A DNA stretch of 41,795 nucleotides, taken from positions 1 through 41,795 of the forward strand of contig CAYIDV010000002.1 of NCBI GenBank assembly GCA_964362315.1. The letters are read 5' to 3'. Below the pieces are notes generated by a model that saw nothing but the letters and a program-made list of their open reading frames with translations, ran no database searches and was not told where the DNA came from. The DNA comes from an uncultured Candidatus Saccharibacteria bacterium. GTDB lineage: Bacteria; Patescibacteriota; Minisyncoccia; Minisyncoccales; Staskawiczbacteraceae. This document shows, in pieces, positions 132 to 14,984 of this stretch; position 1 is the first letter of the stretch; each line of letters begins with the position of its first letter. Both the position numbers and the translations under genes were made by a program.

Positions 132-143
132 ATTTATTAGTAG

Positions 144-215
144 TGGACTTGGTAGGATTCGAACCTACAACCTGCCGGATATAAGCCGGATGCTCTGCCA
201 TTGAGCTACAAGTCC
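144..215 (-). tRNA. tRNA-Ile(UAU)
   Basis: Minus strand sequence GGACTTG TA GCTC AATGGCA GAGC A TCCGG CTTATAT CCGGC AGGTT GTAGG TTCGAAT CCTAC CAAGTCC A. The 7-nt anticodon loop CTTATAT places TAT at positions 34-36. Confidence 0.8.
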
Positions 216-218
216 ATA

Positions 219-881
219 TTAAATATATTTATTTGAAATTGCTTTTATACCCATTAACACTTTTTCAGACAATCTCGCATTTCCTAATCTTGTATTACAA
301 GTTCCATGACCGAAACCACCTTTTTGATTGATTCTTAATGAAGAACTTTTCTTTATGTATGGTTTAGAAAACTGATTTTTTGGAATGTTTAAAATTTTTG
401 ACCAAAAAGATAACTCTTTTTCAACATCCATATCATTATATAGATGTAGAGAAAATCTTAATTTTTCTCTAGATATTTTTAATACTTTTTCAATCCAATT
501 GATAAAAAAGTTAATTACAGACGGATCAGTATTAGAAACAGACACATGATTTGACATTGTTTTTCCACCCTCGCCCCAATATAGAAAAAGTCCGGCAATA
601 AAAAGATCTCTTTTACTTAACGGAAAAATTTTCTTTTTTTGCTCAAGATAAAATTCTTTCAATCTTTTTTCTTTTGTTTTTCGTCTTGTTTCTCGGTACC
701 TTTCAATTCTTTTTTCATTATTTCCCCGTAATTCATTTATCTTTTCTCTAGATAAGGGGTAATCTCTAAGCCAATAACTAAGTGTGCTTTTACTTACTTT
801 TAACTTTTTCTTAATCTGGCTATAGCTTAACTCTTGCTTTCTAAGAATTAAAGCTTGTGCTCTTTTCTCTTTTAGCGCCAT
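219..881 (-). CDS. N-terminal HTH fused to a single-motif LAGLIDADG-like endonuclease domain; putative free-standing homing endonuclease
   Basis: 220-aa ORF. The N-terminus LSYSQIKKKLKVSKSTLSYWL looks like a resolvase-type HTH. The motif LFIAGLFLYWGEGGK followed by VSVSNTDPSVINFFINWIEKVL resembles the LAGLIDADG helix plus the following beta strands. Confidence 0.5.
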   Translation of the reverse strand: MALKEKRAQALILRKQELSYSQIKKKLKVSKSTLSYWLRDYPLSREKINELRGNNEKRIERYRETRRKTKEKRLKEFYLEQKKKIFPLSKRDLFIAGLFLYWGEGGKTMSNHVSVSNTDPSVINFFINWIEKVLKISREKLRFSLHLYNDMDVEKELSFWSKILNIPKNQFSKPYIKKSSSLRINQKGGFGHGTCNTRLGNARLSEKVLMGIKAISNKYI

Positions 882-3052: not shown

Positions 3053-3086
3053 ACAAAAAAAGGGCGCCCTCTACGAGAAGGCGCCT
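3053..3086 (-). terminator. Intrinsic terminator downstream of the 3113..4267 gene
   Basis: On the minus strand, GGCGCC-ttctcgtagag-GGCGCC is followed by a run of eight T (CTTTTTTTT). Confidence 0.6.
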
Positions 3087-3112: not shown

Positions 3113-4267
3113 CTACTGCTTGGCGGCGCGCCTTGTGCGGCGTGCCTTGGGAGCTACTTCGGGCTTGGCGTCCGACTGAGGAACATCTTCCGGCTTTGGT
3201 TGTACCGGTCTGGGAAGAGCCAGCATCTTCCACCTACCTTCCAAGCTGAGCCTACGACGGATAAGGTGCTGGATTTGCATCAGCGAATCAAACTCATCCT
3301 TGTTTTCCAGGTACGTCTCCAGATGGAAACCTACGTTCAAGCTACCATCCCACTGTTCTTGAAAGAGCAGTGGCGGAAGCTCATAGGTCTCTCGCGGGAG
3401 GGCAAGTGGCTTGTCGGCTACCCATCCTTCCAATCTGAAGTTGCCTGATTTCTTCTCCTTGTTCAAGAGAAGGGCCAGCAGGCCAACTCCTTTTTCCTGT
3501 CCGTCTTCTTTAGCCCGGAACTTGGTATCGTAGATCACCAAGGATCCAATCTTCATTCCCCGGACAAGCTGGTTCAGGAACTGCTGGTCCGGATCGCTGC
3601 TTAGGGTCGCCTGTTCCAGCAATGGTTTGATTTTGGGCATCACCTCAGCTTGGGTTTTCTCGTAACCCCTGACCGTGCCGACCGCGCTGGTCACAAACGG
3701 CCAAATCAAGTATGCCTTGGCTAAGTTAGTGGGCATGTACCACTGCCCGCTATCCAACGGCCATTGGAACTTCTTGTTCCCCCAGGCGCACCCATCTACT
3801 TTTAAGATAAGACCCTGGGTCTCGATGTTGCCGAGGAAGTTGTTGAGCTGTTCTCGACTGAGAATGGTCCGTGAGGGACGGATGATTTCATCAACCATCT
3901 CTCGAAGATTTCCTAGCAGCGACGGGATGTTTGAAAACTCGTCGATGATGACTAGGGCATCCTCGGAGACTTGTACGCCTCGGGCGATACTCCTGAACAA
4001 CTCCAATTGCTGATCCCATCCCGCTCCTTTCCACTTGCCGAGGTACCACTCGTAAGTGGCTTTGGAGAACGAGTAGTTGATGGAGTCCTGCAGGTTTTGA
4101 ATACAAGTAGCATCGAGAGTGCTAACTGCATCCATGAACATGTCTGCGTTCTTGAACCCTTCCTTAAGCTCGGTCAGAGTCTCTTGCGTTCTCTGGGCCA
4201 GCGAACTTCCCTGTTTGGCCCTAAGCCCTGCAAGTCGCTGACCAAAAGCTGACTGTGGCGTTCCCAT
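3113..4267 (-). CDS. Hypothetical protein, GC-rich, no family recognised; arginine/lysine-rich C-terminal tail
   Basis: 384-aa ORF in a 60-70% GC segment. GAAAGGAAA lies upstream of the ATG. It contains a hhhhDE-like stretch ALVIIDEFSN but I see no Walker A. The C-terminus is PKARRTRRAAKQ. Confidence 0.7.
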   Translation of the reverse strand: MGTPQSAFGQRLAGLRAKQGSSLAQRTQETLTELKEGFKNADMFMDAVSTLDATCIQNLQDSINYSFSKATYEWYLGKWKGAGWDQQLELFRSIARGVQVSEDALVIIDEFSNIPSLLGNLREMVDEIIRPSRTILSREQLNNFLGNIETQGLILKVDGCAWGNKKFQWPLDSGQWYMPTNLAKAYLIWPFVTSAVGTVRGYEKTQAEVMPKIKPLLEQATLSSDPDQQFLNQLVRGMKIGSLVIYDTKFRAKEDGQEKGVGLLALLLNKEKKSGNFRLEGWVADKPLALPRETYELPPLLFQEQWDGSLNVGFHLETYLENKDEFDSLMQIQHLIRRRLSLEGRWKMLALPRPVQPKPEDVPQSDAKPEVAPKARRTRRAAKQ

Positions 4268-4370
4268 GTGTCGTTTCCTTTCGTGGTTTGGTGTTTTCGG
4301 TTACGCTGCCGCCTTGTAGTGTACTGGCCATAATTGTATATAATTAAGTAACTTTTGTCAATAGCTTATG

Positions 4371-4766
4371 CTATCTTGTTAAAACGTCATTTTCTCCGTC
4401 AAAGTATCCTTCGATAGTTTCCACTTCTTCTGGTGTTTCAAAGTAGTGTATAGTATTATTTTTTATGGCTTTTTCTAATAATTCGTTGGAATAAGAAGGT
4501 GTCACTCCTTGGGCACACGAAAGGGTGATATGGGGATATTTATTTTTTGACTTTGGATTATCAACTAATAGGGCATCTCCTTTTTCATCATATGCCCGAG
4601 CTAAAATTTTAATTACTGACTTTTTGCCGATTTCTATCTCGTCCAAATTATCCGGCTTAAAAGCAATAGTAGAATGATGAGCATATACATTTTTGTGTTT
4701 TGGCGGAAATTTTTCCAATAGACTTTTTCTATCTTTAACGAATTGGGCTGTATAGATTATGGTCAT
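4371..4766 (-). CDS. Small 2H phosphoesterase-like protein (two H-x-T/S-x motifs)
   Basis: 131 aa with AHHSTIAF and PHITLSCA about 50 residues apart, the spacing and style of the LigT/CPDase/tRNA-ligase CPD domain. The gene is AT-rich and SD-less like the backbone. Confidence 0.55.
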   Translation of the reverse strand: MTIIYTAQFVKDRKSLLEKFPPKHKNVYAHHSTIAFKPDNLDEIEIGKKSVIKILARAYDEKGDALLVDNPKSKNKYPHITLSCAQGVTPSYSNELLEKAIKNNTIHYFETPEEVETIEGYFDGENDVLTR

Positions 4767-4785
4767 AATTTATTAGTATAACACA

Positions 4786-4829
4786 AAAAGAAAAATCCCC
4801 ACATCGCGCGTTGGCACGGTATGGGGATT
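4786..4829 (-). terminator. Intrinsic terminator downstream of the 4834..5736 gene
   Basis: Minus strand stem AATCCCCA ... TGGGGATT followed by TTTCTTTTTGT. Confidence 0.55.
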
Positions 4830-4833
4830 GGGT

Positions 4834-5736
4834 TTATTGTACAACCTTGACGTTAAGGAGCTTCGGGGGGCGACCCTTCTGACTTCCGAACGCCACCTTG
4901 TCCGAGAAGGAAATGAGCTGTCCAGGGTGCAGACTTTTGACGCCGTCCTCGTCGGGCGATTCGTCAATGTCTACTCCGTGGACCCAGGCATTCTCTCCTT
5001 CCCCGCCGTTTTTCCAGTAATCGAGCGGGTGAAGATTGGCAATGCCTTGGCCTGTTTGTCCTCCGAATAATGAGTACCATTCAACTCGGGCGATTCCTTG
5101 CCCTGGAATTGGTCTCAGGGGAGGATCCAGCTCCTGCAAGGAGCCGTTCCAGTAAGGGAGATGAGCGGTCTCGAGTAGACCTTGAAACTTCTCGTCTTTC
5201 AAGATCCCTTTTCTAACCTCGAATGAGCCCCATGAAGGATCTTCGGGTTTGCCGACGATCTCGCCCTTGCTCTGGTAAAGCTGTCCTCGCCATCGAAACT
5301 TGTTCAAGAGGCGAAAGGTTTCGGCATCGTCATGGGTCACAATGCCGAGTAAGAAACAGTCAAGGTGACCGTTCTCACACAGATGCGAAAGGTCAACGCG
5401 ATTGGGTTTGGCTTCGTGCCAGCTGGTCCATGCGTTTGGACCAACGCGTCTGACCTCAATGTGATCGTGCATGACCCAGGTTTGGACGCCATCCTCGAGT
5501 CCCACTTGTTGAAGAGCGTGACGATGATGGTTACCCTTAGTCTGACCGACGTTTTTCTGGGTGACGACAATCCGACCTTCATCTGGCACGAAGATCACCA
5601 AGTTAAAGCCGTTGGGTTTGACTCCATCGGGAATCTTGAGCACTCCGTGCTCGCCAATCTCCAAGTACTCTCCAGTATTGGAAAGCAACACGCTTGCTGC
5701 GACATCCGCTCCTTCAAACAACCTGACTTGTGCCAT
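4834..5736 (-). CDS. Hypothetical protein with a C-terminal cold-shock-like OB-fold; His-rich N-terminal region
   Basis: 300 aa, GC-rich, with a strong SD AAAGGAGGTG 6 nt before the ATG. The C-terminus GIARVEWY..GQGIA..ENAWVHGVDI..KSLHPGQLISF..KGRPPKLLNVKVV follows the CSD pattern G.V.W...G.GFI...d.FVH...I...L..GQ.V.F....kG..A.nV. The N-terminus has GNHHRH and VMHDH. Confidence 0.6.
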   Translation of the reverse strand: MAQVRLFEGADVAASVLLSNTGEYLEIGEHGVLKIPDGVKPNGFNLVIFVPDEGRIVVTQKNVGQTKGNHHRHALQQVGLEDGVQTWVMHDHIEVRRVGPNAWTSWHEAKPNRVDLSHLCENGHLDCFLLGIVTHDDAETFRLLNKFRWRGQLYQSKGEIVGKPEDPSWGSFEVRKGILKDEKFQGLLETAHLPYWNGSLQELDPPLRPIPGQGIARVEWYSLFGGQTGQGIANLHPLDYWKNGGEGENAWVHGVDIDESPDEDGVKSLHPGQLISFSDKVAFGSQKGRPPKLLNVKVVQ

Positions 5737-5761
5737 TGGGCACCTCCTTTCCTGTGCGTGG

Positions 5762-6667
5762 TTAGACGGGAGACTCCAGCGCCAACATAGCTAACGCCAG
5801 GGCGCCATTCTTGCTTTGTGCTGCGGCAATGAATCGCGAGTTGTGGCAGAACGCGGCATCTGGCACACCGGTTATTCCCTGAAAATCGGCCTTCTCTTTG
5901 CCGGCCCAATTTTGGGGAAGATATCGGCGAGCCTTCAGGATGCCCCTGCTTTCTTGCACGACTCGTACCGTCCACTGACCGCCAGTGGGCACAATCATAA
6001 ACAAAACGTACGGTGCGTTGTCTAGGATCAATTCCTGCCGTGGGCAGGAACGATCAAGAACGATGATGGGCGACTGGCCTGCTTTTGACAGGGCGCGATC
6101 AATTGTTTCCTTGGCAATGGCAGCGCCTTCAGCCGTGACGATCTCATTTTCCAAAGCGACCATGGCATATCCCACAGCATCATGGAACCTCTTGTCGAAG
6201 TCCCGTTGCTGGGGTTTTTTGTGCCAGGGCGGATTGAAGGCCGAGATGGCGTCGGAGATTGAGTATGGAGCTATATTCGGATAGTTCAGTTCCGGATACA
6301 GATCATGCCCAACATCGCGAGAGTCAACTGTCTGGACAAGGCGTTCATCAACCACCGTGGCGTGTGAGAGCGAACCGCAGAGCTTAGCTCCGTAGTTAGC
6401 CCACACCAGGCCAAAAGAGGCATACGGAACGCCATTGGGCCGGACTCCCGCTCCTCCTTCCTGGTGATGGTCAAAATCACCAGTCTCGGGATTGTACTTC
6501 CTGCCGATGTCAATCCTCGCATCGGCTCTGGCCAAAGTGGCGGGATCAGCAAACGTAGCAGGATTGATACTTCTCGTGAGAGAAGTAACCAATCCCAAGA
6601 GACGGAGCGTCGCCATCGCAAAAACATCGTCGGCATGAAACAGGTTGCCATGGGTGACCACGTGCAT
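5762..6667 (-). CDS. MYG1 family (UPF0160) metal-dependent exonuclease/hydrolase, DHH superfamily
   Basis: MHVVTHGNLFHADDVFA matches the MYG1 N-terminal THxGxFHADE motif, and DIGRKYNPETGDFDHHQ matches the D-G...FDHHQ motif. I place the start at ATG 6667, preceded by AAGGAG, rather than at the ORF-track start 6733. Confidence 0.8.
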   Translation of the reverse strand: MHVVTHGNLFHADDVFAMATLRLLGLVTSLTRSINPATFADPATLARADARIDIGRKYNPETGDFDHHQEGGAGVRPNGVPYASFGLVWANYGAKLCGSLSHATVVDERLVQTVDSRDVGHDLYPELNYPNIAPYSISDAISAFNPPWHKKPQQRDFDKRFHDAVGYAMVALENEIVTAEGAAIAKETIDRALSKAGQSPIIVLDRSCPRQELILDNAPYVLFMIVPTGGQWTVRVVQESRGILKARRYLPQNWAGKEKADFQGITGVPDAAFCHNSRFIAAAQSKNGALALAMLALESPV

Positions 6668-6772
6668 AAAGCACTCCTTTCGGTGAGGGGTGTTGTTATT
6701 GAAAAAAAAGTTTTCAAAGGGCGGGAGAAACATAGTTGTATTAATACTATGACTCTCCTGCTTTTTGAAATT

Positions 6773-7732
6773 CTATCTCTGTGTTTTATTAGATAGAGCT
6801 TCTTTTATGAACTTTTTTATTCTTTCTAATGGAATTAATGTCGGTTCAATGCCTTTAGGATTAGTTCCGCCGTTTAAAATTGAATTAGTGGCTCGATCGT
6901 AATACCATTCGGGAACACCAAGAACTTTTCCTGGTTTCATTAAGTCAGAAGTTAAATACCTTAACTTCTTTCCTCTGATAATTGCTTCTTCGTTCCTTAA
7001 GTAAGCAGCCAACCATCTTAGGTCAACTTTTTTTAACGGTCTTGTCATTATATTCACATATCCAGATGACATTTTTTGGCAGACAACATCTGATTTTATT
7101 CCCTGGGAAGATCTTAGCCAGCCGGCAATGCTCATGTTATCGGATTCCAATAACACTACCTTCAAATCTTTTTTGCCTTGTTTTACTTCAAATACTTCAG
7201 CTTCTTTCTTTTCCAATTTTTCCTTAAATTCTCCGGGTATTTCTTCTGTTCTCTTTCTTTCTTCAATGTAATGAGCTTTCAGTAAAATTAAAATTATTTC
7301 TATAATTTTTTCCGGTTTTCCTGGAAAACTTTTATTTAAAGAAGTAATTAACCCTGATAACCCAAATGCCTTATCTAAGGGATCTTGAGAAATCGTACCC
7401 TTTCCATATTTGTCATCCCTTTCGCTATAGGCCAAAAGCTTCTGGATGGCTGGATTGCTAGAAATTTCCAAATCATTGGCAATCAGTTCGGATAAGGTTT
7501 TCATTGTTTGATGATGGTCAAACCTACCTTTTCCTACGTCTAAAACCAATACTCCTTTTCCCTCTAGTGAGGATGCTGTTTCTCCCTTAGGAAGCTCTTG
7601 CAAAATTTCCACTATTGCCTTTTCAATGCCAGGATACTTTTGTTGGCCAAAGTTTTTCAAAAGAAAAATGCCTACAATCGTGTCTGGCTGGGGCCGAGTG
7701 GGAATAATAATCTTTTGGAATGAATTTATCAT
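6773..7732 (-). CDS. Divergent MYG1/DHH-like paralog, AT-rich
   Basis: 319 aa. It retains LDVGKGRFDHHQ, but the N-terminal THxGxFHADE motif is replaced by IPTRPQPDTIVG. Confidence 0.55.
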   Translation of the reverse strand: MINSFQKIIIPTRPQPDTIVGIFLLKNFGQQKYPGIEKAIVEILQELPKGETASSLEGKGVLVLDVGKGRFDHHQTMKTLSELIANDLEISSNPAIQKLLAYSERDDKYGKGTISQDPLDKAFGLSGLITSLNKSFPGKPEKIIEIILILLKAHYIEERKRTEEIPGEFKEKLEKKEAEVFEVKQGKKDLKVVLLESDNMSIAGWLRSSQGIKSDVVCQKMSSGYVNIMTRPLKKVDLRWLAAYLRNEEAIIRGKKLRYLTSDLMKPGKVLGVPEWYYDRATNSILNGGTNPKGIEPTLIPLERIKKFIKEALSNKTQR

Positions 7733-7817
7733 ACCTTTCTAATTATATACTTTATGTTATTATATGTCAAGTATCAAAAAACGGCCCTCTAAAGTGTCGT
7801 CTTTGTCTTTAAAATAT

Positions 7818-7946
7818 TTATTTCTTGCTGGATAATTTTAAACTCATCCGATGTTCCTTGGGTTCGATTAATAAAACCTCAAAATCGTAGGTTTCGCCAA
7901 CTTTTAAAGATTCTTCTATTTTTTTGGCAGAACTAAATTCGGAAAT
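7818..7946 (-). pseudogene. Relic copy of the rpsA 3' end (last 42 codons plus stop)
   Basis: The minus-strand translation ISEFSSAKKIEESLKVGETYDFEVLLIEPKEHRMSLKLSSKK* matches the S1 C-terminus ISEFKSQKEMEESLKAGETYDFEILLIEPKEHRMSLKLVIKK* at 34 of 42 positions. In-frame stops lie immediately upstream. Confidence 0.85.
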
Positions 7947-7962
7947 TTAAGCTTTTTATATT

Positions 7963-8625
7963 TTATGAAAAGATATCATCTTTTAACTTATTGGCTTCTT
8001 TGATAAAAAAACTTTGCCACTCTTCAGGTGACACATTTGCAATCATCAGAGGTAAATCAGTTGCTATCCTTGATTTTACAAATTGCGCTCCGAGAGTGAT
8101 TGGATCAACATGCCAATCAAATTTTACTTTTGCTAAAGAAATAAGATCTTTTATAGAATAGTGATTTTTTTTAATAATGCAGTATAGGTCAATATAATCC
8201 CTGGCTTTTGTCCTTTGATAAATCGTAAAAAGCTTATTTACCGCAATATCTTTAAGGCTGTCAATTTCCACACCGTACTGTTTTTCCCCTTTTTCGATTC
8301 TTGTGAAAGGAAAGTAGGTAAATTCCACTTTTAAGTTTTCGTCGGGAAAATTTATAAAAAAAATATTGCGATTAAAACTTTGTTGAAGTTCAAACGTATC
8401 ATAACCTATCACCATTTTATTTTTCTTTAAAAAGGATTGAATTGATAATAGATCCACTTCGTGCTCCGAAAAAAAGTCCAGGTCTTCAGAATAGCGATGC
8501 TGTAAATAAAAAACTGCTAAAGGCGTTCCTCCGGTCAAATAAAAACTCTTGACAATGTTTTTTTCTTTGCCAATGATATCAAGAAACGCCATTTGCCTTT
8601 TAGAAAGCATCTGATCCATGATCAA
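7963..8625 (-). CDS. Nucleotidyltransferase, AbiEii/AbiGii (DUF1814) toxin family
   Basis: 220 aa with the LTGGTPLAVFYLQHRYSEDLDFF motif typical of the family. It overlaps the upstream small gene. Confidence 0.75.
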   Translation of the reverse strand: MIMDQMLSKRQMAFLDIIGKEKNIVKSFYLTGGTPLAVFYLQHRYSEDLDFFSEHEVDLLSIQSFLKKNKMVIGYDTFELQQSFNRNIFFINFPDENLKVEFTYFPFTRIEKGEKQYGVEIDSLKDIAVNKLFTIYQRTKARDYIDLYCIIKKNHYSIKDLISLAKVKFDWHVDPITLGAQFVKSRIATDLPLMIANVSPEEWQSFFIKEANKLKDDIFS

Positions 8626-8809
8626 GAAGAAGACTCAGAAAAGCTTTTTTTGATGGATCCAGTTGAAGCTTAGACCAGTATCGCCTTAATTCTTTCTCGT
8701 TAATCTTTTCTTTACCGAGTCCAAAGTTAATAAGTTGTTCTAATCGCCAAATAGCGTATTCGTCGGGATGTTTTTTAAGTAGCTCTACGTCAGTAGACCA
8801 ATTTTTCAT
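8600..8809 (-). CDS. Small partner protein upstream of and overlapping the NTase; putative cognate antitoxin
   Basis: 69-aa ORF overlapping the NTase ORF by 26 nt, a typical toxin-antitoxin arrangement. I could not recognise a canonical AbiEi wHTH. Confidence 0.5.
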   Translation of the reverse strand: MKNWSTDVELLKKHPDEYAIWRLEQLINFGLGKEKINEKELRRYWSKLQLDPSKKAFLSLLLDHGSDAF

Positions 8810-8834
8810 AATACTATTATATCAAAATTTAAGA

Positions 8835-8876
8835 AACAAAGCAAAAATCCCGCGATGCGGGATTTTTGCTTTGTTT
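8835..8876 (-). terminator. rpsA intrinsic terminator
   Basis: AAACAAAGCAAAAATCCCGC-gat-GCGGGATTTTTGCTTTGTTT, a 20-bp perfect stem with internal T runs. Confidence 0.75.
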
Positions 8877-8882
8877 GAGTAT

Positions 8883-10058
8883 TTATTTTTTTATCACCAG
8901 CTTCAAGCTCATCCTGTGTTCTTTTGGTTCTATGAGTAGAATTTCAAAATCATAAGTTTCTCCTGCCTTCAGTGATTCCTCCATTTCTTTCTGCGATTTG
9001 AATTCAGAGATATGACAAAGACCTCTTATTTTTGGCAAAACCTCAACAAAGGCGCCAAAAGAGCTGAAAGAAATTATCTTGCCTTTTATAACGTCACCTT
9101 TTTTGTACTTTTTTTCAATCTCTTCCCAGGGATTTTCTTTTAATCTCTTTAGAGACAAAAACACCTGATTATTGCTTATTTCTATAATTTGGGCTTTGAC
9201 AGTCTCGCCAACTTTTACAACCTCCGAGGGATTTTGGACCAATTGCCAGTCCAGTTCTGAAATGTGAATTAGTCCTTCAATTTCGCCCCTTACAGTTTTG
9301 CCCCGCTCTTGTTTTTCAGATTTCCCTTGGATACTCTCTTCAGGAATACTCTTTGAATTTTCATCTGGCAAAACTTGGGAGGGTAAAGGAAACTTAATAA
9401 ATACCCCAAAATCGGCGATGCCGGTTATTTTTCCTTCAACAATATCTCCTTTTTTATAATCTTTAAGAATTTCTTTTAATACCTGCTCTGTTTTTGCTTT
9501 TTCAGACAGTATAAGCTTGTTTTCCTGAGCCAACAAATCCAGTATTTTTACTTCCAAAGTTTTACCAATGAATTTTTGCAGCTCTTTTAAAATCTTTTGC
9601 TTGTCGGCATCAACAACCCTTGGATAATTTTCCGGAGACAGCTGCGAAACTGGCAAAAAAGCAGGTATACCGTTAATGCTGCTAAGCAATCCTCCCTTGT
9701 TTACTCCTGTAATTTTCACGCTTATAATTTCTTCTTTTAGCTTCATATCTTTAAGTTTTTGCCAGCTTATGTCTTCCATGGCATCTTTCAGGGAAAGTTC
9801 AACATAGCCATCTTCGTTTTCCAACTCAACGACCTTAGCATGAACCGTGTCCCCAATGTTTAGGTTTTTAATGGCATCTTTCACTTGGTAAAATTCCTTG
9901 CCGTAAATAATACCGGTGCCTCCCTGAGAGCCTAAATCAACAAAAAGAGATGATCTGTCCCGTGCCACAATCTTTCCTTCAACCAAAGACCCCACCGACA
10001 GCATAGTCAGTCCCTCCTCTAATTTTTTAGCGGTATTTTCCTTGGTCATATTTAACAT
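8883..10058 (-). CDS. rpsA: 30S ribosomal protein S1
   Basis: 391 aa with repeated S1 OB-fold units (G.IV.G.V....G.FV.L). Confidence 0.9.
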   Translation of the reverse strand: MLNMTKENTAKKLEEGLTMLSVGSLVEGKIVARDRSSLFVDLGSQGGTGIIYGKEFYQVKDAIKNLNIGDTVHAKVVELENEDGYVELSLKDAMEDISWQKLKDMKLKEEIISVKITGVNKGGLLSSINGIPAFLPVSQLSPENYPRVVDADKQKILKELQKFIGKTLEVKILDLLAQENKLILSEKAKTEQVLKEILKDYKKGDIVEGKITGIADFGVFIKFPLPSQVLPDENSKSIPEESIQGKSEKQERGKTVRGEIEGLIHISELDWQLVQNPSEVVKVGETVKAQIIEISNNQVFLSLKRLKENPWEEIEKKYKKGDVIKGKIISFSSFGAFVEVLPKIRGLCHISEFKSQKEMEESLKAGETYDFEILLIEPKEHRMSLKLVIKK

Positions 10059-14089: not shown

Positions 14090-14123
14090 ATTCTAACTTC
14101 TAGATACTAAATTCTAAATTCTC
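14090..14123. repeat. 34-nt dispersed repeat ATTCTAACTTCTAGATACTAAATTCTAAATTCTC
   Basis: Matches 27345..27378 with one mismatch. It ends 5 nt before the GTG start at 14129. Confidence 0.9.
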
Positions 14124-14128
14124 GTAAA

Positions 14129-14653
14129 GTGGCTGATTTTTTAAAAGTAGGTGAAATTTTAAACCAGCTTGATTTGAAAGAAAGCATGTTGGCAGCTGAA
14201 TTTGGCTGCGGTTCTGCCATGTTTGCCATTGCTTTAGCCAAAAAGCTGAAAAGGGGCGTGGTATACGCTTTAGACATTCAAGAAGAAAAACTATCAGCTT
14301 TAAAAGGCAAATTATCCATAGAAAAAATCAATAATGTTAAAACTATCCTTTGTGATTTAGAAGCCAATAAGGGATCTACCTTAAAAGACAACTCCTTAGA
14401 TGTAGTATTAATCCCCAACGTCTTGTTCCAATCAGAAAATAAAGCTGCTATAATGAAAGAAGCAAAAAGAGTATTAAAACCAGCTGGAGAGCTTTTGGTG
14501 ATAGACTGGCTAAAAAAGACTCACTTTAACCAGAAAGAAAATCTGGTAAGCCCGGATGAGGTAAAAAAAATAGCAGAAATTATTGGTTTTTCACTTAAAA
14601 AAGAGTTTGCGGCCGGAGATTATCATTATGCTTTGTTGTTTTTGAAAAAATAA
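14129..14653 (+). CDS. Class I SAM-dependent methyltransferase
   Basis: 174 aa. Motif I is AAEFGCGSAMFA, with an acidic residue at the end of beta2 (YALDIQ). Confidence 0.8.
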   Translation: MADFLKVGEILNQLDLKESMLAAEFGCGSAMFAIALAKKLKRGVVYALDIQEEKLSALKGKLSIEKINNVKTILCDLEANKGSTLKDNSLDVVLIPNVLFQSENKAAIMKEAKRVLKPAGELLVIDWLKKTHFNQKENLVSPDEVKKIAEIIGFSLKKEFAAGDYHYALLFLKK

Positions 14654-14654
14654 A

Positions 14655-14984
14655 ATGAAAAAAATTATTATTTTTCTTGTTTCTTGTGTCTTGTTGCTTG
14701 TTTCCGTTTCGGCTTCTGCCCAAATCACTCTTCCCAATCCCGCTGGCGTTAAGACTTTTGAAGCCCTTATAAGCGCTATTGCTAATTTCATAGCAAGTCT
14801 TGTCGGAGGATTGGCTGTAATTATGTTTATTTGGTCAGGAATTCTCTATTTAACATCTCGGGGTGACCCAGGACAATTACAAAAAGCCCATAAGGCTTTG
14901 TTATACGCTGTAATAGGAGCAGCCATTGCTTTGTCAGCTGCTGCCTTGATTGCCCTTATAAAATATATTTTAGGCACTAAGTGA
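14655..14984 (+). CDS. VirB2/TrbC-like (T4SS_pilin-type) small membrane pilin, paralog 1
   Basis: Signal peptide ending SASAQ, then two hydrophobic helices flanking YLTSRGDPGQLQKAHKAL. Confidence 0.7.
   Translation: MKKIIIFLVSCVLLLVSVSASAQITLPNPAGVKTFEALISAIANFIASLVGGLAVIMFIWSGILYLTSRGDPGQLQKAHKALLYAVIGAAIALSAAALIALIKYILGTK

Follow-up and report, generated by a model that had tools for sequence, protein, structure and literature searches.

A stretch of 41,795 nucleotides from a groundwater Staskawiczbacteria genome, a member of the candidate phyla radiation (CPR), contains a locus between rpsA and ftsH in which three genes, W319 (319 aa), W300 (300 aa) and W384 (384 aa), appear to form the core of a conserved module. 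The whole stretch is referred to here as the window. W319 is a predicted DHH/DHHA1-like phosphoesterase, W300 is predicted to end in a cold-shock-like oligonucleotide/oligosaccharide-binding (OB) fold, and W384 is a fast-evolving orphan. Together with accessory 2H phosphoesterase and MYG1 proteins, these genes are tentatively interpreted as a Staskawiczbacteria-wide cytoplasmic module for the processing or degradation of RNA 3' ends and of short RNAs with 2',3'-cyclic or 3'-phosphate termini, an interpretation in which we place slightly less than even confidence. A second feature of the locus is the GC-rich composition of the genes that accompany W319.

A conserved gene core between rpsA and ftsH

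A first-pass annotation of the window had described seven minus-strand open reading frames (ORFs) in a row between ftsH (956-2839) and rpsA (8883-10058), and had read the row as a candidate composite locus. All seven ORFs were found, with exact coordinates, and family and structure searches confirmed the domains that had been named (2H-like, OB/cold-shock-like, MYG1, DHH-like and AbiEii). The unit itself stood in part: five of the seven genes appear functionally linked, whereas the AbiEii pair is a separate insertion. The window order MYG1-W300-2H-W384 recurs in two independent Hainich groundwater assemblies, and thus it is not a chimera.

A scan of metagenome contigs with a W319 profile added 80 loci, and the neighbourhood counts given below refer to 77 distinct W319 loci, which carry L numbers where they are named. 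Sequence comparison identified W319, W300 and W384 as the conserved core, which many Staskawiczbacteria-like contigs carry between rpsA and ftsH, and W300 homologues were found in the same context in independent contigs of Candidatus Staskawiczbacteria-like CPR bacteria. Two layouts were observed. In the first, rpsA is followed by W319, W300, an optional gene (for example 2H or HD), W384 and ftsH; in the second, ftsH-W384 is divergent from W319-W300, which is followed by rpsA. W300 lies downstream of W319 in 29 of the 47 loci with enough flanking sequence, and W384 was recognised by hidden Markov model (HMM) beside W319/W300 in 17 of 53 loci, in co-directional or divergent orientation. The neighbours at fixed positions are the core genes rpsA, ftsH, gyrA and a metallo-beta-lactamase (MBL)-fold gene. 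Pairwise identity over seven loci, determined by BLASTP and HMM, was 58-78% for W319, 43-59% for W300 and 26-40% for W384, which places the conservation of W319 on par with that of rpsA. The earlier suggestion that the two orphans belong with RNA-related genes was upheld by these neighbourhoods, in which the 300-aa and 384-aa proteins co-occur with DHH, 2H and MYG1 genes in the fixed rpsA-ftsH context; the suggested co-occurrence with a nucleotidyltransferase was not borne out.

W319 resembles DHH/DHHA1 phosphoesterases and is often fused to a 2H domain

W319 (6773..7732, minus strand) has the low native GC content of the window and is the putative catalytic anchor of the module. The family comprises 339 members, and at least 120 of them are 57-74% identical to the window protein. 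Among 54 aligned sequences, D72-H73-H74, D17, D106 and D107 are invariant and D65 is nearly so. Acidic residues occupy the motif II and motif IV positions, and the C-terminal region contains a glycine-rich loop, LNGGxNPKG. The AlphaFold2 (AF2) model of W319 (mean predicted local distance difference test score, pLDDT, 88.2) has the two-domain arrangement of the DHH/DHHA1 superfamily as well as its motifs. The best nine Foldseek matches of this model in PDB are all DHH-family proteins, with E values of 5e-4 to 1.6e-2 and probabilities of up to 0.94, and the top matches include a Helicobacter pylori structure (6mtz), Borrelia DhhP (9r7o), GdpP (5xt3) and family II pyrophosphatase.

W319 had been described as a divergent MYG1/DHH-like paralogue. 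The fold similarity supports its placement in the DHH superfamily, but paralogy with MYG1 was not demonstrated: W319 gave no match to the MYG1 profile, its sole BLASTP similarity to the window MYG1 is the shared GxFDHHQ motif, and hhalign of the W319 family against MYG1 returned 66% probability with only 25 columns aligned.

In 24 of the 77 distinct loci, W319 carries a C-terminal LigT-type 2H fusion (PF13563, PF02834). This fusion would be a directly testable enzyme.

A GC-rich partner gene that follows W319 in L082 (1327-2364, plus strand) encodes a 345-aa protein with no Pfam match. Its C terminus (PQLLNGSVSRT...PSEIIALIQERY) resembles the C-terminal LNGGxNPKG...IPLxxIK segment of W319, and the protein may be a divergent GC-rich DHH-like paralogue.

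W300 and W384 are orphan partners

W300 (4834..5736, minus strand) has 31 full-length homologues and combines an N-terminal beta-rich domain with a C-terminal cold-shock-like OB fold. The AF2 model of W300 has a pLDDT of 93.2. Its C-terminal ~85 aa (residues ~215-300) are predicted to form a five-stranded OB barrel of the cold-shock domain (CSD) type and match the YBX2 CSD (7f3j_A) in Foldseek with probability 1.00, a target-based template modelling score (TMt) of 0.64 and a root-mean-square deviation of 2.7; a CSD of Mimiviridae in BFVD was matched with the same probability of 1.00. Profile searches returned weak CspB matches (E values of 0.2-1). The model therefore supports the earlier assignment of a cold-shock-like OB domain to the 300-aa protein. 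An RNP2-like W-V-H-G motif is kept.

W384 (3113..4267, minus strand) is GC-rich and has only 18 relatives among 1.84 billion representatives. It gave one marginal PADLOC match, to PDC-S01 (E = 0.0046, 37 residues). W300 and W384 are new families. The candidate explanation that W300, W384 and W319 are phage structural proteins was rejected, as W300 gave only CSD matches in BFVD and none of the three matched PHROG.

Accessory 2H, HD and nuclease genes surround the core

The small 2H phosphoesterase gene (4371..4766, minus strand) has low native GC content and occupies a variable slot of the module. Its 131-aa product is short for a 2H enzyme and matches PF08302 (tRNA_lig_CPD; 26.5 bits against a cut-off of 23, E = 5.4e-6), the cyclic phosphodiesterase (CPD) domain of Trl1. 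The two H-x-T motifs expected of a 2H enzyme are present (H31-S-T and H79-I-T, in the strings HSTI and HITL) and are invariant in three orthologues. In L008 and L075, orthologues with 64-68% identity adjoin W300, and in L063 a 75-aa fragment lies two genes away from W319. Altogether, the window-type small 2H gene was found near W319 in four loci. In L001 the small-2H slot is filled by an HD protein, the one locus with an HD protein near W319.

Another accessory gene (5762..6667, minus strand, with an ORF that extends to 6733 and encodes 323 aa) is GC-rich and encodes a MYG1-family DHH exonuclease. The 323-aa protein is a full-length member of the MYG1/UPF0160 family, matching PF03690 over model positions 2-318 of 318 (189 bits against a cut-off of 22.1, E = 1.6e-55) and a PDB MYG1 structure (24ah) with an E value of 3.2e-21. 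The true start is probably M23 (6667): residue 25 is the first to align with the Pfam model, and the product annotated in an independent assembly has 301 aa. MYG1 is known to act as a 3'-5' RNA exonuclease (PMC6582341). MYG1 genes lie near W319 in five loci, or six when L054 is counted; homologues adjoin W319/W300 in L032, L033, L035, L049 and L054, with the window order in L049 and L054. An NYN RNase gene lies near W319 in two loci.

Two different 2H families, the LigT type as a fusion and the Trl1-CPD type as a separate gene, and an HD protein are found in the same role or slot, a pattern suggestive of non-homologous replacement. The best support for joint action of the genes on phosphate or cyclic-phosphate RNA termini comes from the combination of the Rosetta-stone fusion, the use of two 2H families and the presence of HD in the slot.

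A possible role in RNA 3'-end turnover

Hydrolysis of 2',3'-cyclic phosphates is a known activity of 2H enzymes and of some HD enzymes, DHH/DHHA1 enzymes remove phosphate from pAp and break down short RNAs or dinucleotides, and OB folds of the cold-shock type bind single-stranded nucleic acid. In the scheme that we infer, which extends to the substrates, the order of the reactions, the association of the proteins with one another and the purpose of the structured mRNAs described below, a 2H enzyme would first act on the products of metal-independent RNases and open their 2',3'-cyclic phosphate. That enzyme would be the one fused to W319, the one encoded alongside it as in the window or, in its place, an HD phosphohydrolase. 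W319 would then take off the terminal phosphate, trim the RNA or oligonucleotide, or both, in the manner of NrnA, GdpP or MYG1-type DHH enzymes, and MYG1 or NYN nucleases would add capacity in some lineages. W300 would bind single-stranded RNA through its cold-shock-like OB fold, and W384 would serve as an adaptor or regulator. For an organism of reduced metabolism, the module as a whole would turn over RNA, heal RNA ends or recycle nucleotides. Because the module sits among core genes at a fixed position, such a housekeeping role is suggested over phage defence. The first-pass proposal that the chemistry of the locus centres on RNA 3' ends or cyclic phosphates is plausible, in view of the W319-2H fusions and the recurring 2H, HD, NYN and MYG1 neighbours. 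RNA metabolism in CPR bacteria is reduced and poorly understood, and a DHH-2H module present throughout a lineage, together with two orphan protein families, would add a new pathway for the processing of RNA 3' ends or cyclic phosphates. Literature searches found no described DHH-2H-CSD system, and targeted searches of a paper library returned no case in which a bacterial MYG1 gene is linked to genes for another DHH enzyme, a 2H protein and a CSD-like protein.

Several observations weigh against this interpretation. The assignment of substrates draws on knowledge of the superfamilies. W319 is linked to DHH enzymes by fold alone; it keeps a single Asp of motif I, within a PTRPxPD motif, it has no Pfam, NCBIfam or PHROG match, and phmmer and profile searches against PDB sequences were empty. 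The global template modelling (TM) scores of its Foldseek matches are just 0.2-0.25, probably because of an inter-domain hinge. In W300, the RNP1 position reads F-[AG]-G-Q-T-G-Q-G, with the Phe/Tyr pair lost; the protein has no Pfam CSD match and lacks the full set of RNP1/RNP2 aromatic residues, and its N-terminal ~210 aa gave no significant structural match and a marginal profile match to galectin-10 (E ~0.02). W384 offers no informative feature, having no Pfam or PDB match in phmmer and profile searches. The trio is also not obligatory, since fused W319-2H genes often lack W300 (nearby in only 4 of 11 with enough flank) and occur in other contexts, as in L012, where the fusion sits outside the rpsA-ftsH context.

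Inheritance of the module is a further point of this kind. Congruence was first read from identity matrices, and the claim of strict vertical inheritance was then softened in view of Mantel tests, which show weak coupling to housekeeping genes: correlation with rpsA was 0.45 for W319, 0.29 for W300 and 0.13 for W384, compared with 0.93 between rpsA and the MBL-fold gene. Within the module, the correlations were 0.53 for W319-W300 and 0.53 for W319-W384. Given this weak coupling, some horizontal replacement of module genes is likely, and the term housekeeping is unproven.

The same enzymology, a 2H or HD cyclic phosphodiesterase with a phosphoesterase, would also serve a stress-induced pathway in which tRNA or rRNA 3' ends hit by ribotoxins are restored and structured, GC-rich mRNAs allow expression under attack. 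In Pfam, the small 2H protein matches the healing domain of Trl1, toxin genes are common in the vicinity, and mRNAs of unusually stable predicted structure would resist single-strand-specific RNases. However, the window proteins, the cluster and the precomputed Pfam calls of the related neighbourhoods inspected yielded no RNA ligase, polynucleotide kinase, Hen1 or RtcB, an RtcR-type regulator is absent, and the extra nucleases MYG1 and NYN argue for degradation over sealing. We consider stress-induced end-healing unlikely, although it is the strongest of the alternatives.

Partner genes are GC-rich and their mRNAs are predicted to fold unusually stably

W384, W300 and MYG1 have 52-56% GC, compared with ~30-38% in the 2H gene, in W319 and elsewhere in the 41.8-kb window. 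GC content at third codon positions (GC3) is 0.64 in W384, 0.58 in W300 and 0.58 in MYG1; it is 0.27-0.41 in the other genes, with 0.31 in W319 and 0.27 in the small 2H gene, and averages about 0.35 in adjacent genes. The partner genes showed this pattern in every related locus examined, with an extreme in L011, where the W300 and W384 orthologues have GC3 values of 0.55-0.63 and their neighbours, W319 included, 0.13-0.14. The GC3 of W319 tracks that of housekeeping genes (r = 0.90, mean difference -0.04). In contrast, the GC3 of W300 (mean 0.60, +0.24 over housekeeping, n = 27) and W384 (mean 0.62, +0.29 over housekeeping, n = 18) is independent of host GC3, and the partner genes top the GC3 of every sampled host, including hosts at ~0.5. 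Among 400 genes in 27 loci, 38 were GC3 outliers, and 33 of these 38 lie within four genes of W319. In distant lineages, other unclassified GC-rich orphans occupy the partner positions. The steps in GC content coincide with gene boundaries, low-GC genes sit between GC-rich ones, and the codon shift spans all codon families, resembling that of a genome with ~53-55% GC. Literature searches returned no description of GC-rich gene sets in CPR bacteria.

Predicted folding was compared with dinucleotide shuffles and synonymous-codon shuffles, and the z-scores given are means over eight loci, except for MYG1, which is from the window only. With the two shuffles, respectively, the mean z was -5.2 and -4.5 for the W300 mRNA, -4.4 and -3.4 for the W384 mRNA, and -5.1 and -7.3 for the MYG1 mRNA. 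The control mRNAs gave +0.6 and 0.0 (W319) and -1.2 and -1.9 (rpsA), and one-sided Mann-Whitney tests of the comparison gave p values of 1e-6 to 2e-3. Because the partner mRNAs fold more stably than their synonymous-codon shuffles, composition alone cannot explain the folding. RNAalifold on a codon alignment showed no conserved structure in the GC-rich genes (E -7.9, 10% paired), and an Rfam search of the cluster gave no match; the maintained property is general foldedness and not one specific RNA.

Several candidate explanations of the GC mosaic were rejected. A codon shift that is global does not fit the avoidance of certain codons, tRNAs or RNase motifs, and a trinucleotide check of the GC-rich genes found none specifically missing and no motif avoided. 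The possibility that the GC-rich ORFs are spurious frames over a structured non-coding RNA was set aside in view of the lack of an Rfam match, the order GC1 > GC3 > GC2 across codon positions, as in coding sequence, the pLDDT of 93 for W300 and the lack of an RNAalifold consensus.

The GC-rich genes could instead be merely foreign, the result of recent transfer from a GC-rich donor, of regional GC-biased gene conversion or of assembly chimerism, with a composition that has no function. The genome-like, global codon shift, the lack of any specifically avoided motif, the independence from host GC3 and the poor correlation of the W300 and W384 phylogenies with rpsA speak for such an origin. However, high GC content recurs in these genes, at the same syntenic position, in more than 25 independent assemblies from lineages with housekeeping proteins of only 56-84% identity, and this recurrence of the mosaic in many assemblies and lineages led us to reject a chimera or recent horizontal transfer. 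A regional process such as gene conversion is excluded because W319 or 2H genes of native composition lie between the GC-rich genes with sharp edges at the gene boundaries. The elevation of the partner genes above every sampled host and the folding in excess of synonymous-codon shuffles also count against a foreign origin, which we regard as improbable.

Gene-specific selection on the transcript would then be the best remaining reading of the GC anomaly. We consider it possible, and on balance doubtful, that W300, W384, MYG1 and the other orphan partners are under gene-specific selection for GC-rich, stable mRNAs that act as a built-in code for expression or survival, with GC3 raised by up to ~0.5 above adjoining genes. 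For instance, only these transcripts would resist single-strand-specific RNases, whether from the module or from toxins; alternatively, they would need the module's own cold-shock-like protein for translation, or the GC-rich partner genes would be expressed only under particular conditions. Against selection of this kind, other GC-rich partner genes gave z-scores of -2 to -6.7, weaker for some of them (-2 to -3 with synonymous shuffles), and native genes of GC-richer relatives average a z of about -1.5. Among the protein-coding genes of bacteria, a gene-precise and persistent jump in GC3 together with excess predicted folding is unusual. If true, selection on the transcript would represent a novel form of self-protection or regulation at the post-transcriptional level, linked to an undescribed DHH-2H machine for RNA-end processing. 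It would mean that composition is tunable gene by gene for reasons at the RNA level, and it would caution that atypical GC content need not indicate recent horizontal transfer.

Further GC3 outlier ORFs without an assigned family (GC3 of 0.53-0.87) were observed in the neighbourhoods at positions that do not adjoin W319. These include an ORF at 14120-14731 (plus strand) in L008, ORFs five to seven genes from W319 in L034, L043 and L067, a 408-aa ORF in L080 and a 527-aa ORF in L090. The set of GC-rich genes may be larger than the module.

The AbiEii pair is an independent cassette at the rpsA 3' end

The two remaining genes of the row lie next to rpsA. The AbiEii (DUF1814) nucleotidyltransferase gene (7963-8625, minus strand) encodes a 220-aa protein that matches PF08843 (71 bits, E = 1.6e-19), 20 PADLOC AbiEii models and PDB 4o8s. 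The upstream gene (8600-8809, minus strand) overlaps it by 26 nt and encodes a 69-aa protein in the position of an antitoxin, an arrangement that agrees with membership in the AbiE/DUF1814 group. The 69-aa protein gave no family match in any library searched, and neither an AbiEi match nor a winged helix-turn-helix (wHTH) domain of the AbiEi antitoxin type was found in it.

The pair is bracketed by a 111-nt direct repeat, 70% identical between its arms, at 7815-7925 and 8880-8990. The second arm lies inside rpsA, and the first (7815..7925, minus strand) is a decayed relic copy of the rpsA 3' end; both stop at the same stop position. In related genomes W319 comes directly after rpsA. AbiEii is present in 2 of the 77 loci, the window and L082, and the AbiEii/69-aa pair is missing from all loci other than the window. 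The L082 AbiEii lies at the same site, is 32% identical to that of the window and belongs to an unrelated cassette, which has an 89-aa DUF6922 protein as its partner and is bounded by a 46-nt rpsA-tail repeat that is 87% identical (L082 2458-2503 and 3487-3532). The two cassettes measure ~1.03-1.07 kb (~1.07 kb in the window) and carry no integrase. Since rpsA-tail repeats bound two unrelated cassettes and related genomes run from rpsA straight to W319, sequence comparison identifies the AbiEii/69-aa pair as an independent ~1-kb cassette of the toxin-antitoxin type that targets the rpsA 3' end, and the pattern suggests a site-specific mobile toxin-antitoxin cassette. The claim that the pair is part of one unit with the other five genes is not supported, in view of the duplicated rpsA 3' end and the restriction of AbiEii to the window and L082. 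An integrase-less cassette of this kind is a compact case of site-specific toxin-antitoxin mobility.

Pairs of the HicA/HicB-like and MNT/HEPN (PF01909, PF01934) types were also observed in the rpsA-gyrA-ftsH neighbourhood of L005 (209-659 and 8825-9483) and in L006. Small toxin-antitoxin cassettes seem to collect in this part of the genome.

Signalling and defence as alternative roles

A third way to account for the enzymes is a second-messenger hydrolase module, in which a 2H enzyme would linearise a signal that is cyclic or 2'-5'-linked, leaving the linear product to be degraded by the DHH/DHHA1 enzyme. The best structural neighbours of W319 include the c-di-AMP/pApA phosphodiesterases DhhP and GdpP, 2H enzymes cleave 2'-5'-linked and cyclic oligonucleotide signals, and HD proteins, one of which substitutes for 2H in L001, include c-di-AMP hydrolases. 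Yet the neighbourhoods inspected contained no linked cyclase, sensor or effector gene, the cold-shock-like OB fold and the MYG1 and NYN nucleases favour polymeric RNA, and Foldseek matches at TM 0.2-0.25 cannot separate DHH subfamilies. A signalling role is very improbable.

Least probable of all is the composite anti-phage or RNA-attack locus that the first-pass annotation had put forward, in which AbiEii would modify tRNA 3' ends on infection with DHH, 2H and MYG1 as co-effectors or as reversal and repair arms: AbiEii belongs to a genuine family of defence or toxin-antitoxin proteins, W384 evolves at an arms-race-like rate, the module phylogeny is partly decoupled from housekeeping genes and HicAB and MNT/HEPN toxin-antitoxin genes occur in homologous neighbourhoods, but each AbiEii is a separate insertion with rpsA-tail repeats, the other five proteins have no PADLOC match except the marginal one of W384, W319 is about as conserved as rpsA, and the core is fixed among core genes across the lineage, in contrast to the sporadic occurrence of a defence island.

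Transcription signals and neighbouring genes

The seven-gene row appears from its sequence signals to comprise at least three transcription units. Consensus scans located a sigma-70-type promoter-like site upstream of W319 (7742..7770, minus strand), which matches TTGACA-17-TATAAT at 12 of 12 positions, and a second promoter-like site upstream of W384 (4333..4361, minus strand) that matches at 11 of 12. The same scans found a terminator-like hairpin with a T-run 3' of W384 (3063..3085, minus strand), so that W384 would have its own promoter and terminator. A perfect 20-bp hairpin terminator 3' of rpsA (8834..8876, minus strand) parts rpsA from the AbiEii cassette.

Other features of the flanking genes were observed. 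In several related genomes gyrA is ~370-410 aa longer than the window gyrA (L007, and 1212-1255 aa in L008, L015 and L024), and the L007 gene (2780-6418) contains an intein splicing domain (PF14890, E = 2.5e-23). Over-long ftsH genes of 1097-1123 aa in L014, L015 and L024 may likewise carry inteins. Just downstream of ftsH, the window encodes a 220-aa helix-turn-helix (HTH) protein (219-881, minus strand) with a LAGLIDADG-like segment (FIAGLFLYWGEGGK); its homologues lie beside ftsH in L014, L015, L021, L050, L053, L064 and L088. ARAGORN identified a tRNA-Ile gene with a TAT anticodon at 143-215 (minus strand). Bacteria usually read AUA by way of a lysidine-modified tRNA-Ile(CAU), and a TAT anticodon is uncommon.

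Comparison with known systems

The AbiEii gene of the window resembles AbiE and MenAT-type DUF1814 systems in that a 220-aa nucleotidyltransferase has a small overlapping upstream gene. It differs from them in its 69-aa partner, which matches neither AbiEi nor wHTH proteins (the L082 partner being a DUF6922 protein), and in forming an integrase-less ~1-kb cassette with a duplicated rpsA tail. W300 recalls cold-shock proteins and the CspA paradigm in its cold-shock-like OB fold and in an mRNA of unusually stable predicted structure. Unlike these, it is a 300-aa multidomain protein in which the RNP1 aromatics are replaced (GQTGQG), its mRNA has no conserved fold, and the entire coding region is GC-shifted together with neighbouring partner genes.

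Among DHH enzymes, the 323-aa protein of the window is a full-length MYG1 (UPF0160), whereas W319 has GxFDHHQ in common with this family and is not itself demonstrably MYG1. W319 resembles the stand-alone DHH/DHHA1 enzymes, namely NrnA (nanoRNase/pAp phosphatase) and the c-di-AMP/pApA phosphodiesterases GdpP and DhhP, with which it shares a predicted two-domain fold, the DHH triad, a size of ~320 aa, the acidic residues of motifs II and IV and a glycine-rich C-terminal loop. Unlike them, it matches no DHH Pfam model or PDB sequence, has a single motif I Asp, is often fused to 2H and is paired with orphan GC-rich partner genes.

The module as a whole can be compared with 2H end-healing enzymes (LigT/ThpR and the Trl1 CPD) and with RNA repair operons (Pnkp-Hen1 and RtcA/RtcB), in which a cyclic phosphodiesterase likewise stands beside other RNA-end enzymes; here, two different 2H families have been recruited. 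With no ligase, kinase, Hen1 methyltransferase or RtcB, and no RtcR-type regulator, it falls outside any described operon type. In place of those enzymes, the partner of the 2H domain is a DHH enzyme, often within a single fused polypeptide.

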